From contig JADLHE010000005.1 in assembly GCA_020848965.1 (NCBI GenBank), positions 1 to 63,810 on the forward strand: a stretch of 63,810 nucleotides of DNA, read 5' to 3'. Every line of letters starts with the position of its first letter. Position 1 is the stretch's first letter. Source of the DNA: Saprospiraceae bacterium (GTDB taxonomy: Bacteria; Bacteroidota; Bacteroidia; Chitinophagales; Saprospiraceae). The notes under the pieces were generated by a model. That model was given only the letters and a program-made list of their open reading frames with translations, was not told the origin of the DNA and made no database searches. The position numbers were made by a program, and so were the translations under genes. Positions 59,448-63,810 of the stretch are shown piece by piece.

Positions 59448-60011
59448 CTAATCGCAATTCACCAGGTACCCTTCGATTTTTTTGGCTGCATGGTGAAACG
59501 ATGCCTTCAGTGCCCCCTCCGAGGTGCCCAGCAGTTCGGACATTTCGGCGTAGCTCATTTCATCGAAATAGCGCAGGTTGAACACCTGCCGCTGTTTGTC
59601 GGGCAGGGTTTCAATGGCTGCCAGCAGTTTCAGTTGCGCAGCATCGCCGTCGAAATGCTCGTCGGCCCGCAGGCTATTGGCCATCGGGCTTTCGCCAGCA
59701 TCGAGCGGGGTGGACATACGCTGCTTTTTTTTGTTCAAAAAAGTGATGGCCTCGTTCGTTGCAATGCGGTAGAGCCAAGTAAAGAGCTTCGACTTTCCCT
59801 CGAAAGTGTGGTGGCTACGATAGATTTTCACAAAGCAGTTTTGAAGCACATCGTTGGCATCTTCGTGGTCAAAGACCATACGGCGCACTTGCCAGTAGAG
59901 CCGCTCTTGGTACGATTCCATCAGTAGCCGAAAGCCACGGTCGGCTTGGCTGCCACCCTCCCGCAGCAGTGACAAAATCCTTTCGTCCACGATTTCGCTG
60001 TTTTGCACCAT
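59448..60011 (-). CDS. ECF-type RNA polymerase sigma-70 factor
   Basis: Region 2 (DANDVLQNCFVKIY...FTWLYRIATNEA) and region 4 (LPDKQRQVFNLRYFDEMSYAEMSELLG). Confidence 0.9.
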   Translation of the reverse strand: MVQNSEIVDERILSLLREGGSQADRGFRLLMESYQERLYWQVRRMVFDHEDANDVLQNCFVKIYRSHHTFEGKSKLFTWLYRIATNEAITFLNKKKQRMSTPLDAGESPMANSLRADEHFDGDAAQLKLLAAIETLPDKQRQVFNLRYFDEMSYAEMSELLGTSEGALKASFHHAAKKIEGYLVNCD

Positions 60012-60243
60012 CGAATCTTGCGTGAGGGTTTGGTGGATAGACTTCTACAAGTTGGCAAAGTTTAAAAAGCCTGTAAAAATTTTATTGTTATGCTCGAAAA
60101 AGCCTTCTCGCACAATTTTTGCCATAAAACCCAGTTAGGCGCAGGTAAAAGTTGAACATGGCTTGTGCATTATCTCCATTGCAGCCATCCTCACTACTTT
60201 TGTTGCACTTAAACAAGCCCCTGAGTCCTTAAAACTGATAGTC

Positions 60244-62403
60244 ATGAGAATTCTACCACATAAAGATTTGTTCCGCAAGATAGCATTTGCCTGTCTTGCT
60301 GCGGCAGCGCTTGGAACTACTTCGCCACTGCTGGCGCAATCCAAGACCATAGACAAGGCCAACGAACTCTATAAAAACAACCAGTTCTCCGATGCAGCGG
60401 ACCTATACCGCCGTGCCTTGCAGGAAATGGAAAACGAGGGCAAACTGGGTCGGAATGCCACCACGCTCAAGAGCAAACTCGCCTATTGCTACCGCATGAA
60501 CAACAAAATGGACATGGCCGAGGCACTCTACGCCGAAGTGGTGAAGGACGAAACCGCAAAGGCGGATAACCTATACTATTATGGCGAGGCACTGATGAGC
60601 AATGGCAAGTACGACGAAGCCCGTAAATGGTTTTCGGACTACCAAAAACTGGAGCCACAGGACGAGAAAGCGGGCCTTATGCTTCGGGCTTGCGACTACG
60701 CCCCGCTCATTCAGCCTTATTTCCAATATATTGATATACAGCCGTTTCCGTTCAATTCCGATGCCGATGACAATGCCCCGATTGCTAGCCGAAAGGGCCT
60801 GATTTTCTCCTCGGACCGGAAACAGGGCATGAAGATACTGAAGGAAAAATCGGGCTGGACTGGCCGTGATTACCTCAACCTTTATATCAGCGAGAAAAAA
60901 ACGAATGGCAGTTTTGCAGAGCCGATTCAATACTCCTCCAAACTGAGCGAGGTGAACAAAAACACGGGCAATGCCTCCCTCACCGCCGATGGTTCCGAGA
61001 TTTTCTTTACCCGAAACGACAATGAACTGAACAAGCAGAACACCTACAGCTTGCAACTCTACTCCGCAAAATCGGGCGAAACCGAGCGCTGGAAAGACGT
61101 CGAAAAACTGCCATTTTGCTCATCAAACCACAATTTCATGCACCCCGCTGTATCGCCCGATGGCAAATTGCTCTTTTTTGCATCCAATCGGGCAGGCGGC
61201 TTCGGCGGCACGGACCTTTGGGTTTCGGAGCGGAAAAATGGCGAATGGAGCAAGCCGGAAAACCTCGGCCCCGCAGTGAACACCACGGCCAACGAGGGCT
61301 TCCCGTTCGTGGCGATTGATGGCAAATTGTATTTCTGCTCCAAAGGCCACCCCGGCTTCGGCGGCTTCGATATTTTCATGACCTACAAAGACGAGAACGG
61401 GGCCTGGCAGCCAGCCACCAACCTTGGCAAACCCATCAATAGCCCATTGGACGATATTTCCATCTTTGTTGCCAACGACGAGCATAGTGGCTATTTCACC
61501 AGCAGCCGCAGTGGCGGCGATGATGATATTTACATTTTCACCGTGCTGGACAAAGCACCCGAATTACCCACGGCGGAGGAGCCAGTAGCTATTGTAACAA
61601 CACCAACCGTAGCTCCTGCCATAACGGAAACACCCCAACCAGCTAGTGAGGAAATAGCCGTTGAGGAGCCAGCAGCCGTTGTAGAAACGAAAAAAATAGA
61701 ACTCCCCATTGCGACGCCGCCGCCTGCAAAAGTGGAGGAAAGCCCCGTGCAGTCGGTTCAAAAGCCCCAATCTCAGCCCGTTGCCGTTGAAGAGCCTACC
61801 CCCAAAACGCATCAAAAAAGCGAAGAATTAAAGCCAGTAGCACCTGCGGAAACTGATAAAGGCCCAGCTTCGGAAGTAGTCCCACCAACTACCCAAAGCA
61901 AAGACCCTTTTGCGCCGACTGAAGTTGCGGAGCAAAAGCCCAAAACACTGGAGCCTGGGAAAAGCTATATCAACCAATTGGGCAGTTTCGTTGATTTATC
62001 CAGCAAGCTGGATGATGGTAGCTTAGCATTGGGCGAGCGTTTTCGCTTGGATGGCGCAGTGTTCGACCCCAATGTTTGGCAGTTGACCCCAAGGGTCATT
62101 AACCCATTGAACAAACTGGCGAACCTATTGAAAAACTATCCTTCGCTTCAAGTTGAAATCAGTGCGCATACGGAGGCGCTGGGTGTGGATGAAACAAACC
62201 TCCAAATTTCGGAGAGCCGAGCCGGTACCATCTTAGATTATCTGGTACGGGAAGGCATTGACAAGCGACGTATCCTGACAAAGGGCTGCGGGGAAACCAT
62301 GCCCCTCAACCATTGCCGAAATGGGGAGACTTGCAGCATGGATGAACACATGCTCAACCATCGCATAGAGGTAAAAGTGTTGGCCGTAGATGGAAAATGG
62401 TAA
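60244..62403 (+). CDS. OmpA-family protein with TPR region, TolB-like beta-propeller repeats, Pro-rich linker and C-terminal OmpA domain
   Basis: ORF 60163..62403; the ATG at 60244 gives MRILPHKDLFRKIAFACLAAAALG. Repeated SPDG..L.F.S.R.GG.G..D.. propeller blades. C-terminus ISAHTEALGVDETNLQISESRAGTILDYL. Confidence 0.8.
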   Translation: MRILPHKDLFRKIAFACLAAAALGTTSPLLAQSKTIDKANELYKNNQFSDAADLYRRALQEMENEGKLGRNATTLKSKLAYCYRMNNKMDMAEALYAEVVKDETAKADNLYYYGEALMSNGKYDEARKWFSDYQKLEPQDEKAGLMLRACDYAPLIQPYFQYIDIQPFPFNSDADDNAPIASRKGLIFSSDRKQGMKILKEKSGWTGRDYLNLYISEKKTNGSFAEPIQYSSKLSEVNKNTGNASLTADGSEIFFTRNDNELNKQNTYSLQLYSAKSGETERWKDVEKLPFCSSNHNFMHPAVSPDGKLLFFASNRAGGFGGTDLWVSERKNGEWSKPENLGPAVNTTANEGFPFVAIDGKLYFCSKGHPGFGGFDIFMTYKDENGAWQPATNLGKPINSPLDDISIFVANDEHSGYFTSSRSGGDDDIYIFTVLDKAPELPTAEEPVAIVTTPTVAPAITETPQPASEEIAVEEPAAVVETKKIELPIATPPPAKVEESPVQSVQKPQSQPVAVEEPTPKTHQKSEELKPVAPAETDKGPASEVVPPTTQSKDPFAPTEVAEQKPKTLEPGKSYINQLGSFVDLSSKLDDGSLALGERFRLDGAVFDPNVWQLTPRVINPLNKLANLLKNYPSLQVEISAHTEALGVDETNLQISESRAGTILDYLVREGIDKRRILTKGCGETMPLNHCRNGETCSMDEHMLNHRIEVKVLAVDGKW

Positions 62404-62554: not shown

Positions 62555-62586
62555 ATTGCGCCGTATTGCATAAGCGGTTAAGTTTG
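62555..62586 (+). promoter_or_regulatory. candidate promoter for the pheA leader region
   Basis: ATTG (62555-62558), 20-nt spacer, TAAGTTTG (62579-62586). The leader-1 ATG is 19 nt downstream of the -7 box. Confidence 0.35.
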
Positions 62587-62604
62587 CCGCATAATCGAAA
62601 TCAA

Positions 62605-62661
62605 GATGAATCTGTATCCGAACAATTTTTGGTTTAGCTTTTACTTTTACGGTCAATCGTA
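62605..62661 (+). CDS. candidate leader peptide 1: MNLYPNNFWFSFYFYGQS
   Basis: Own reading. 18 codons, 8 of them F/W/Y. About 12 nt downstream of a candidate promoter. Followed by an antiterminator/terminator pair. Confidence 0.55.
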
Positions 62662-62711
62662 ACGGGGCTAAAGCATTTTGTTCTTCAATCAGGTTTGAAA
62701 ATAAAATCAAA

Positions 62712-62737
62712 GAGTCCCGCTTGCGGGACTTTTTTTT
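62712..62737 (+). terminator. intrinsic terminator (attenuator 1) after leader peptide 1
   Basis: AGTCCCG-CTTG-CGGGACT followed by a long T-run. Confidence 0.7.
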
Positions 62738-62773
62738 TGCCCTTATTCAAAAAGACAAGTGATGAGCGATGAT

Positions 62774-62813
62774 GCGAGCATACTCGAAACTCGCAACTCA
62801 AAACTCATAACTT
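62774..62813. repeat. ACTCGAA-family heptamer array with GCGAGC head, 12 nt upstream of the leader-peptide-2 ATG
   Basis: GCGAGCATACTCGAAACTCGCAACTCAAAACTCATAACTT. Near-identical to 20633..20677. Confidence 0.85.
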
Positions 62814-62824
62814 TTTCCGCAGCC

Positions 62825-62884
62825 ATGTCGCCTAACCAAGTTAACTTTTTCTGGGGTTTTTATTTTTTCTGGGGTACTCCTTAG
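62825..62884 (+). CDS. candidate leader peptide 2: MSPNQVNFFWGFYFFWGTP
   Basis: Own reading. 19 codons, 8 of them F/W/Y. Followed by GGGGACTTT and a strong terminator that ends about 15 nt before the pheA ATG. Confidence 0.6.
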   Translation: MSPNQVNFFWGFYFFWGTP

Positions 62885-62922
62885 GGGACTTTTGGTTTGC
62901 TTTTTTGTGAAAAAGAAAAACG

Positions 62923-62954
62923 AAAGCCCCGCAATGCCGGGGCTTTTTTGTTTT
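62923..62954 (+). terminator. intrinsic terminator (attenuator 2) immediately upstream of pheA
   Basis: AAAGCCCCG-CAATGC-CGGGGCTTT followed by TTTGTTTT. Confidence 0.75.
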
Positions 62955-62968
62955 ATAAATAATTGAAA

Positions 62969-63810
62969 ATGAGCATAGTAGAAACAAATATCGGAAGCGA
63001 GGCCACTGCCGAAGTGGAGGCACAGCCAAAGCTCAAGGTTGCCATCCAAGGCGTGCCCGGTGCTTTTCACGACATCGCTGCCCGGCACTTCTTCGGCGCC
63101 GACCGGGTGGAAATCGTGGCAGCCCACACTTTCCGCCAACTCGTTGAACAAGTGGAAAGCGGCGCTGCCGACACCGGCCTCATGGCCATTGAAAACACCA
63201 TTGCTGGTAGCATCATCGGTAATTACCGATTGCTCACGGCCAGCAAACTGCGGGCAGTCGGAGAGGTTTACTTGCGCATCCGGCAGAACCTAATGGCACT
63301 GCCCGGCCAGCGAATCGAGGACCTGTGGGAAGTACACTCGCACCCCATCGCCATCGCCCAGTGCGACGAGTTCTTTGCGCAGCACCCACACATACGCCTC
63401 GTGGAAATGGAGGACACCGCCCTGAGTGCCCAGCGCATTGCGCAGCAGCAAATCAAAGGCGTTGGAGCCATCGCCAGCAGCCTCGCCGCCAGCATGTACG
63501 GCCTCGACCTGCTCGCAGAGAGCATCGAAACCAACAAGCTGAACTTCACCCGCTTCCTCGTGCTGGAGCGCATGGCTGAAGTTCAGACAACCACCAATGC
63601 CGACAAAGTTTCCCTCTTCTTCTCCCTCTCGCACGAGGTCGGCAGTCTGCACAAGGTGCTCGCCGCCCTCGCCGCCTACGGTGCGAACTTGACGAAAATC
63701 CAGTCCGCCCCCATCGAAGGACGGCCTTGGGAATACTTCTTTTTCGTTGACTTCGTCAATGAAGAAGGTGCCGAGTGGCAAGCAGCAGTTGAGGCGATTC
63801 GGCCTTTTAC
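62969..63810 (+). CDS. pheA: prephenate dehydratase, first ~280 codons (runs off the right edge)
   Basis: Absent from the ORF track because there is no stop. Own translation: MSIVETNIGSEATAEVEAQPKLKVAIQGVPGAFHDIAARHFF...GLMAIENTIAGSI...NFTRFLVL...SLFFSLSHEVGSLHKVLAALAAYGANLTKIQSAPIEGRPWEYFFFVDF (PDT plus ACT domain). Confidence 0.88.
   Translation, partial: MSIVETNIGSEATAEVEAQPKLKVAIQGVPGAFHDIAARHFFGADRVEIVAAHTFRQLVEQVESGAADTGLMAIENTIAGSIIGNYRLLTASKLRAVGEVYLRIRQNLMALPGQRIEDLWEVHSHPIAIAQCDEFFAQHPHIRLVEMEDTALSAQRIAQQQIKGVGAIASSLAASMYGLDLLAESIETNKLNFTRFLVLERMAEVQTTTNADKVSLFFSLSHEVGSLHKVLAALAAYGANLTKIQSAPIEGRPWEYFFFVDFVNEEGAEWQAAVEAIRPF

Follow-up and report, generated by a model that had tools for sequence, protein, structure and literature searches.

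Two probable leader-peptide transcription attenuators in series upstream of pheA in a Saprospiraceae bacterium

In a contig of a Saprospiraceae bacterium (JADLHE010000005.1, assembly GCA_020848965.1; the whole stretch of 63,810 nucleotides is referred to below as the window), the prephenate dehydratase gene pheA is preceded by a region in which a first-pass annotation had placed two leader-peptide transcription attenuators, one behind the other. This locus raises the question whether one transcript can carry two complete ribosome-based sensors ahead of a single amino-acid biosynthesis operon. To our knowledge, leader-peptide attenuation is known almost entirely from single units in Proteobacteria. 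For the Bacteroidota, we know of no Shine-Dalgarno-led translation initiation and of no TyrR- or TrpR-type repressors that act on these operons. The comparative and folding analyses described here indicate that the pheA 5' leader very probably contains two homologous ribosome-mediated attenuators, arranged in series on one transcript.

Two complete sensor-plus-terminator modules, each starting with a short open reading frame (ORF), were found between a single promoter box and pheA. Their parts are the following (MFE, minimum free energy):

62555..62586, + strand: candidate Bacteroidota-type promoter, with a -33-like (A)TTG at 62555-62558, a 20-nt spacer and the -7 box TAAGTTTG at 62579-62586
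62606..62662, + strand: leader ORF 1, MNLYPNNFWFSFYFYGQS followed by a stop codon; 18 codons, 8/18 F/W/Y (4 Phe, 3 Tyr, 1 Trp)
62633..62672, + strand: 1:2 (anti-antiterminator/pause) hairpin of unit 1, with a lower helix of UUUAGCU (62633-62639) and GGCUAAA (62666-62672)
62647-62651 with 62658-62662, + strand: apical stop hairpin of unit 1 in the MFE fold, UUACG paired with CGUAA, in which the stop codon is embedded
62663..62719, + strand: predicted antiterminator of unit 1, CGGGGCU (62663-62669) with AGUCCCG (62713-62719), enclosing an inner hairpin at 62675-62707
62709..62738, + strand: terminator 1, an 11-bp stem (62709-62719/62724-62734) with loop CUUG (62720-62723) and a U-run (62730-62738)
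62739..62824, + strand: inter-unit spacer, which holds TAACTTTT (62808-62815), a 7/8 near-match to the -7 box
62825..62884, + strand: leader ORF 2, MSPNQVNFFWGFYFFWGTP followed by a stop codon; 19 codons, 8/19 F/W/Y (5 Phe, 1 Tyr, 2 Trp)
62865..62888, + strand: stop hairpin or 1:2 pairing of unit 2, UUUUCUGGGG with CCUUAGGGGA; 10 pairs that embed the TAG stop codon and sequester the G-run of region 2
62884..62930, + strand: predicted antiterminator of unit 2, GGGG(A)CUUUUG (62884-62894) with CGAAAGCCCC (62921-62930), enclosing an inner hairpin at 62897-62918
62922..62954, + strand: terminator 2, a 10-bp stem (62922-62931/62938-62947) with loop CAAUGC and a U-rich tail to 62954
62969..63810, + strand: pheA, starting with ATG at 62969 and encoding prephenate dehydratase (PDT) and ACT domains; cut by the end of the window

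All features named in the first-pass annotation were present in the sequence. The promoter elements, the aromatic residue counts of both mini-ORFs, ORF 2, the G-rich segment at the unit 2 stop codon (GGGGACTTT, 62884-62892), terminator 2 and the pheA start codon were as it had described them, while its coordinates for unit 1 were 1 nt too low and should read 62606-62662 for ORF 1, 62663-62669 for CGGGGCT, and 62713-62730 for AGTCCCG...CGGGACT, with a T-run to 62738. The core of terminator 1 consists of AGTCCCG (62713-62719), CTTG (62720-62723) and CGGGACT (62724-62730). Because its T-run overlaps the stem, a simple terminator scan of the window did not list this + strand site and listed its - strand mirror site instead. 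Terminator 2 ends 14 nt before the pheA ATG. The 10-bp 1:2 hairpin of unit 2 is rich in G-U pairs and weaker than its unit 1 counterpart. It is followed by CUUUUGGUUU (62865-62897 for hairpin and tail) and was flagged as terminator-like by the simple scan; like the 1:2 hairpin of trp leaders, at which polymerase pauses, it could hold the polymerase back and so keep translation in step with transcription.

Composition set the two mini-ORFs apart from the rest of the window. Among 730 small ORFs (ATG-initiated, 8-45 codons, both strands), only ORF 1 and ORF 2 reached 6 or more aromatic residues within 10 consecutive positions (scores 7 and 8), and a terminator followed each within 110 nt. Phe, Tyr and Trp together made up 42-44% of the two leaders, as compared with 9.8% of the long ORFs of the window. 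A covariance model based on homologues of unit 1 gave only two matches in the window, at 62606-62738 (100.4 bits) and 62825-62952 (53.7 bits, E=8e-8). The presence of two aromatic leader ORFs in this window is more than chance.

Conservation of the units was analyzed in 160 pheA loci collected from genomes and metagenomes, to which four closer loci (L161-L164) were added later; a script searched upstream of pheA for an aromatic-rich mini-ORF followed by a terminator. The PheA fragment places the window in Saprospiraceae-like Bacteroidota. In this comparison, which the first-pass annotation had proposed as a check, an F/Y-rich leader ORF plus terminator was detected in most of 161 Bacteroidota loci, and nearly every locus with enough upstream sequence had a leader unit, including those of human-gut Bacteroides (for example MNRFSFTYYFYYFYFSRVKAGVCM). 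The tandem arrangement described in that annotation is kept in about 37-40 related loci, with the promoter box ahead of unit 1 only: 37 loci by a strict ORF criterion and three more on inspection (L002, L082 and L012, in which ORF 2 is apparently GTG-initiated). The 37 loci belong to Saprospiraceae, Lewinellaceae, Phaeodactylibacter (among them the cultured P. xiamenensis KD52, L042, NZ_JPOS01000038.1) and three Bacteroidales metagenome-assembled genomes (MAGs).

First units form one family ('..NNF.F[SG]FYFYGQP'), with homologous ORFs in at least 28 relatives in which the ATG is invariant and lengths differ by multiples of 3. Second units form another ('M.PNQ...FYFFYG.P'), so the duplication should be older than the split of Saprospiraceae, Lewinellaceae and Phaeodactylibacter. 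The covariance model, built from 28 first units, also detected second units, with two matches in 34/92 sources and one match in 37/92; all 105 matches were on the pheA strand. Judged from these sequences, the duplication happened long ago, selection acts on the structure of both copies, and one of them has now and then been lost. Outside the Saprospirales, tandem F/Y units were seen in the Bacteroidales MAGs (L047, L049, L053) and in a human-gut metagenome (L113). Their leader peptides could not be aligned with those of the Saprospiraceae, which suggests independent duplications.

Several loci showed individual departures from the two-unit layout. Among relatives, Haliscomenobacter hydrossis and Neolewinella have one unit each. 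In L022, L028 and L037, which have a single unit, a spacer of 160-200 nt before pheA keeps a 'AACCAAATTAT' remnant, and in L022 and L028 this spacer is filled with repeated CCATGG/CCGTGGG palindromes (REP-like). In unit 2 of L009, L012, L013, L016, L027 and L083, a 1-nt change puts the ancestral TAA in the hairpin out of frame, and the ORF ends 12 nt further on (...HKGA[D/I/G/H]-stop), or 18 nt in L027 (...HKGTHCC-stop). The stop hairpin and the GGAGC region 2 are retained in this group, and a terminating ribosome would still stand over region 2.

The predicted helices were well supported by covariation. The fold of unit 1 showed the terminator behind a long 1:2 hairpin (MFE -41.2 kcal/mol, z = -3.4). 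In a MAFFT alignment of 28 first units, the terminator was 98% paired with compensatory changes, and the stop hairpin (UAYGS....SCRUAA) was 97.6% paired, with compensatory UA<->CG (18/9) and GC<->CG (14/8) changes. The lower 1:2 helix was 70% paired despite register shifts (66-70% over the alignments analyzed) and showed both-sided changes at 4/6 pairs, as where a Ser codon AGC pairs with GCU and a Gly codon GGU with ACC. MAFFT column counts under-score this helix and the antiterminator, owing to register shifts of 1-3 nt (for example TAA-GGGGC versus TAG-GGGC), and alignment-free duplex tests and a structure-aware alignment of 105 units, derived with the covariance model, were therefore added; the terminator of unit 2, whose loops were misregistered by MAFFT, was excluded from the column-wise pair counts. 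In the 105-unit alignment, the stop hairpin was 97% paired, and both-sided changes occurred at 10/10 terminator pairs and 5/6 stop-hairpin pairs. Over its stored structure, 316 cells carried both-sided changes, a number reached by 0/500 shuffles. In relatives, the homologue of the window's unit 2 stop hairpin reads UAUGG..CCAUA, and in L163 A-U or U-A stands in place of G-U.

Covariation extended to the alternative pairing. The antiterminator was 82% paired in first units, as compared with 39-65% in slid controls. It was 75.8% paired over the 105 units, whose alignment had been built on the terminated-state structure without regard to the antiterminator, versus 34-62% in slid controls, with 45 both-sided changes (0/500 shuffles) and one pair present as AU 27/GC 26/GU 14. 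When the segment most complementary to the terminator 5' arm was located in 133 distinct units, it lay 0-8 nt after the stop codon in most of them, and duplexes between stop-proximal segment and arm were more stable for cognate than for non-cognate combinations (-8.74 versus -6.43 kcal/mol; 0/2000 permutations; Wilcoxon p ~1e-18). Matching changes in unit 2 of relatives included GGAAC/GUUCC, GGAGC/GCUCC, GAGGAC/GUCCUC, GAAGAC/GUCUUC and GAGGACUUUU/AAAAGUCCUC. The pairings originally proposed for the window, CGGGGCT/AGTCCCG and GGGGACTTT/AAAGCCCC, are the ones that covary, and they also appeared in the constrained folds described below.

These helices also explain most of the conservation of the leader "peptides": NN, PNQ, S/G and the YG.P-stop or YA.A-stop endings all lie in them. 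A C-terminal Pro-stop acting as a peptide-level stalling signal was considered and rejected as the main cause of this ending, since YG.P-stop/YA.A-stop covary as RNA pairs; TAT/TAC covaries with the third base of the last leader codon. The frequent Pro-stop ending is RNA-driven.

Folds in which a 30-nt ribosome footprint was forced to be single-stranded were used to follow both window units through translation. In unit 1, placing the A site on any of F8-Y15 gave the antiterminator in transcripts that ended before the 3' arm of the terminator (about -20 to -23 kcal/mol), and with the ribosome at F12 it persisted even in the full-length leader. A footprint on the stop codon masked region 2, left the terminator arm free and abolished the antiterminator. 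In unit 2, the MFE structure of the shortened transcript was the antiterminator (62884-62894 with 62921-62930, plus the inner hairpin) for a footprint on any of F8-W16. As in unit 1, the position of the ribosome decided between the antiterminator and a free terminator arm. The constrained folds thus reproduced, in both units, the E. coli pheL-pheA-like logic that had been proposed for them. In silico, an enriched leader ORF, an intrinsic terminator, an antiterminator masked from the stop codon and a 1:2 hairpin were all present.

From the observed anatomy, conservation, covariation, promoter-motif distribution and folding logic, we infer that the mini-ORFs are translated, that transcription terminates at the two hairpins in vivo, and that termination responds to amino-acid supply. 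Transcription would begin a few nt past the TAAGTTTG box, at approximately 62592-62594, and a ribosome would translate the mini-ORF of 18-19 codons, about 8 of which are for Phe or Tyr (with some Trp in the lineage of the window). With ample charged tRNA-Phe and tRNA-Tyr, the ribosome would reach the stop codon and cover region 2, so that the terminator forms and the polymerase halts at the U-run. Without a ribosome on the mini-ORF, region 2 would be locked into the 1:2 hairpin together with the stop codon, which would again lead to termination. A ribosome stalled on the Phe and Tyr codons would melt region 1 and leave region 2 free to pair with the terminator 5' arm, aided by the inner hairpin, and the resulting antiterminator would allow read-through. 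Since the polymerase must pass both units, the read-through probabilities are expected to multiply: read-through into pheA, the aminotransferase gene, tyrA and the DAHP synthase gene would approximate the product of those of the two units. Two units would then give lower basal expression and a larger, steeper induction upon Phe or Tyr limitation, a multiplicative benefit that is suggested by analogy with tandem riboswitches and synthetic tandem attenuators.

The serial order was derived from the distribution of promoter motifs. A scan for sigma-70 promoters gave no relevant match upstream of the units, as expected for Bacteroidota, and the TAnnTTTG consensus of Bacteroides promoters was therefore used. 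This motif was found upstream of the ORF 1 ATG in 35/37 tandem loci, at a distance of 25-34 nt in nearly all of them; of the two loci without it, one is truncated at a contig end. Upstream of ORF 2 it was found in 1/37. The six closest sequences all have the -33-like TTG and the -7 box (TA.GTTTG) without any change. In the 37 tandem loci, the ORF 2 ATG lies a median of 32 nt beyond the end of the terminator 1 stem, and the gap between the units is often no more than about 20-30 nt. In L001, L162 and L164, three of the five closest relatives, ORF 2 begins approximately 20 nt after the terminator 1 T-run, which leaves no room for a separate promoter. Between the terminator 1 T-run and ORF 2, an additional stretch of about 60 nt (window 62739-62805) is present in the window and L163 and missing from L001, L162 and L164, and the only near-match to the -7 box in the spacer, TAACTTTT, lies at the 3' edge of this lineage-specific insert. 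With the box before ORF 1 only and with such short spacers, one promoter and one transcript that passes both terminators is the simplest reading, and the units would thus act in series.

A number of observations weigh against two functional attenuators in series. The MFE structure of the shortened unit 1 transcript showed the antiterminator also when no ribosome was present, so that default termination would have to rely on co-transcriptional formation of the 1:2 hairpin. Conversely, the MFE structure of full-length unit 2 with a stalled ribosome was still the terminator, so that antitermination there must be kinetic. The outer helices of the antiterminators are short (7-10 bp), and the covariation statistics ignore phylogenetic relatedness. 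A weak internal promoter at TAACTTTT is possible in the window. Finally, unit 2 was lost and unit 1 kept in L022, L028 and L037, and a single unit is sufficient in many taxa; the second unit is in this sense dispensable.

An alternative reading is that only unit 2 regulates pheA, with unit 1 being either the terminator of the upstream OmpA-family gene, which the first-pass annotation had itself named as a possible refutation, or an unrelated or decaying relic of a duplication. Hairpin 1 does follow the stop codon of the OmpA-family gene (62403), which has the same orientation, and many Bacteroidota have one unit only, as do some relatives that have lost one. It is, however, approximately 310 nt away from that stop codon and behind its own promoter box. 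By tblastn, a homologue of the OmpA-family protein of the window was absent from all 160 pheA loci. The gene upstream is divergently oriented in L001, the closest genome relative (89% PheA identity), and among L161-L164 it encodes a TPR protein (+; L161, L164) and an acetyl-CoA carboxylase carboxyltransferase (-) or a GH32 hydrolase (-; L162, L163). Unit 1 is kept at the loci with an opposite-strand neighbour (L001, L162, L163); on the sequences compared, it travels with pheA and not with the upstream gene. As the upstream gene varies among relatives, hairpin 1 is not an OmpA-family terminator. Decay is contradicted by the purifying selection and compensatory changes seen in the ORF, start codon, 1:2 hairpin, antiterminator and terminator of unit 1 in Saprospiraceae, Lewinellaceae and Phaeodactylibacter, and the one-unit loci L022, L028, L037 and L007 have retained the unit-1 type. 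Regulation by unit 2 only is, on this evidence, very unlikely.

Somewhat less improbable, yet still unlikely, are two independent transcription units, in which each attenuator has its own promoter, pheA is driven mainly from the one between the units, and unit 1 yields a stand-alone small RNA (sRNA) or a trans-acting peptide, as rnTrpL/peTrpL in Sinorhizobium. The near-match at 62808-62815 could serve as such a promoter, and trans-acting attenuator-derived sRNAs and leader peptides are documented (PMC7298713, PMC7968998). Against this stand the absence of the -7 box upstream of ORF 2 in 36/37 tandem loci, the spacers of about 20 nt, and the location of the near-match in an insert specific to one lineage; a role in trans of the terminated unit 1 RNA would in any case be compatible with serial attenuation. 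That the units are not translated at all and act as protein- or ligand-binding RNA switches (riboswitch, T-box-like or TRAP/PyrR-like), the F/Y ORFs being a by-product of U-rich RNA, would agree with the extent to which RNA pairing accounts for peptide conservation, and U-rich sequence does produce Phe codons in two frames. It would leave unexplained why nearly all loci, from different orders and with very different nucleotide sequences, should have an in-frame ATG, 8-45 codons and at least 6/10 F/W/Y, why length differences within the ORFs are multiples of 3, and why the encoded amino acids match the products of the operon. The stop codon is placed such that a terminating ribosome covers the 5' strand of the antiterminator (0-8 nt in most of 133 units), and even in the frame-shifted L009 group the new stop, 12 nt downstream, still masks region 2. 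As no Rfam riboswitch or T-box match was found either, untranslated switches are highly improbable.

What the two ribosome-mediated attenuators would sense was deduced from their codons. In the 37 tandem loci, peptides of unit 1 contained on average F 4.65/Y 3.08/W 0.19 and those of unit 2 F 4.95/Y 3.68/W 0.49. A functional specialisation of the two units (Phe versus Tyr versus Trp, or different codons) was not supported, their composition and codon choice being nearly alike, and the two units look redundant rather than specialised. Of the mixture of Phe, Trp and Tyr codons noted in the first-pass annotation, Phe and Tyr are conserved in both units, while Trp is confined to the close clade: close relatives have F, C or Y in place of W10 of ORF 2, and L163 has Y in place of W16. 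As tyrA and the DAHP synthase gene belong to the operon too, mixed Phe and Tyr codons make sense. The two units do not split the amino acids between them and Trp is not conserved; the steeper response that had been suggested is therefore more likely than the multi-input response suggested with it. The Phe codon TTT accounts for approximately 80% of Phe codons in the leaders versus 38% in 25 long ORFs of the window, in which TAT makes up 38% of the Tyr codons. The bias towards TTT in the leaders may slow down decoding, or may simply stem from U-rich structure.

Comparison with known systems showed functional likeness rather than membership. No Rfam family reached its gathering score anywhere in the window (1-63810). 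The Phe_leader model (RF01859; gathering score 55) scored 35.7 bits for unit 2 and 26.7 bits for unit 1, mostly from the terminator, and permissive thresholds returned only sub-threshold, terminator-driven Phe_leader, rimP, Trp_leader and Leu_leader matches. The units work like Phe_leader and are not members of RF01859. They share with E. coli pheL-pheA (RF01859; Gurvich et al., 2011, PMC3082878) a short Phe-rich ORF, 1:2, 2:3 and 3:4 hairpins and a terminator just before pheA. In that study, leader peptides were also noted to end often in Pro-stop, with C residues of the Pro codon paired with downstream G residues. In contrast to the single E. coli unit, whose regulatory codons are for Phe only, the window has two serial units, and leaders of its type have about equal numbers of Phe and Tyr codons. 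The window units have no sequence homology to pheL, are preceded by a Bacteroidota-type promoter and lack a Shine-Dalgarno sequence.

A single pheA leader is already known in the Bacteroidota. The pheA-aspC3 leader-peptide attenuation element of Flavobacterium psychrophilum (Guerin et al., 2021, PMC9723704, Table S7) encodes a 27-aa F/Y-rich peptide, MNTNNTFYSNNSFYFYWNIGRDCYMVI, followed by a terminator, in a mapped 170-nt 5' transcribed region that shows read-through under nutrient limitation. It belongs to the same phylum and has the same operon head (pheA, then an aminotransferase gene), an F/Y-rich leader and a terminator. It is, however, a single unit, whereas the arrangement in the window is doubled, and neither its peptide nor its RNA could be aligned with the Saprospiraceae units. 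In the 5' region of ilvE of F. psychrophilum THCO2-90 (LT670843 551791-552228), three Ile-rich mini-ORFs (MRKFNIIPSIIIAIVIITTAKGML, MTTNTIIIISIIIRSFE and MTTNTIIIIISIIIRSFE) were seen, each followed by a hairpin and T-run and all inside one mapped 437-nt transcribed region; Table S7 of PMC9723704 annotates only the first of these peptides. The Bacteroid-trp leader (Rfam; Weinberg et al., 2010, as cited in PMC9723704) is, according to that citation, likewise of the leader-peptide type and precedes an aromatic (trp) operon in Bacteroidota. It has Trp codons and is a different RNA, and its Rfam model did not match the region, even with the threshold relaxed to E<=10.

Two full sensor-plus-terminator modules stand serially on one leader in tandem riboswitches, in tandem T-boxes and in synthetic tandem pT181 attenuators (bioRxiv 10.1101/003335), with multiplicative repression, a tighter off-state or a steeper response as the outcome. 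In all these cases, the sensors are ligand-, tRNA- or antisense-RNA-binding RNAs, whereas those in the window would be translating ribosomes. Salmonella mgtCBR (Lee and Groisman, 2012, PMC3641672) has two short ORFs in one long leader, and their translation has been proposed to control alternative stem-loops and transcription. These ORFs are mutually unrelated, sense different signals and are not leaders of amino-acid biosynthesis, and they do not form two complete homologous modules of ORF, antiterminator and intrinsic terminator. No two homologous serial leader-peptide attenuators of an amino-acid operon were found in a literature search whose coverage of older comparative genomics was incomplete, so that a prior description is possible. 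The conserved tandem form seems to be undescribed, in line with the first-pass annotation, which knew of no such arrangement for Bacteroidota pheA.

As judged from gene order, pheA is the first gene of the regulated operon. In L001 it is followed by genes for a class I/II aminotransferase, prephenate dehydrogenase (tyrA) and DAHP synthase, and the order in L161-L164 is identical. The pheA leader of the window is preceded by the gene for a 746-aa TPR/PD40/OmpA-domain protein (60163-62403, +), upstream of which lies a divergent ECF-type sigma-factor-like ORF (187 aa; 59448-60011, -). No tRNA or tmRNA gene was detected across the 63.8-kb window (1-63810). In public gene calls (L001 2929-3894; P0001, P0017 and P0022), pheA is extended upstream to a TTG within unit 2, and the coding sequence of the resulting 321-aa forms runs across terminator 2; in one record (L163 1123-1374) a spurious 83-aa minus-strand gene is called over the leader.

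Beyond pheA, serial leader-peptide attenuators with two or three modules may be a widespread, unrecognised design in Bacteroidota amino-acid operons that serves tight, ultrasensitive control, a generalisation to which we give slightly less than even weight. Its examples are pheA with two units (Saprospiraceae, Lewinellaceae, Phaeodactylibacter, some Bacteroidales and L113) and ilvE of F. psychrophilum with three. Such leaders are missed by Rfam. They also cause errors in gene prediction, namely pheA models with added N-terminal residues and false small genes across the leader; a covariance model from first units could be used to annotate them. Although unsurprising in principle, the pheA leader represents a clean, evolutionarily supported case of natural serial sensors in a phylum in which attenuation and coupling have been little studied. 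It offers a natural system for asking whether two serial ribosome-based sensors multiply read-through, as tandem riboswitches and synthetic attenuators do. Because attenuation needs tight coupling of transcription and translation, it also bears on such coupling in Bacteroidota, which initiate translation without Shine-Dalgarno pairing.

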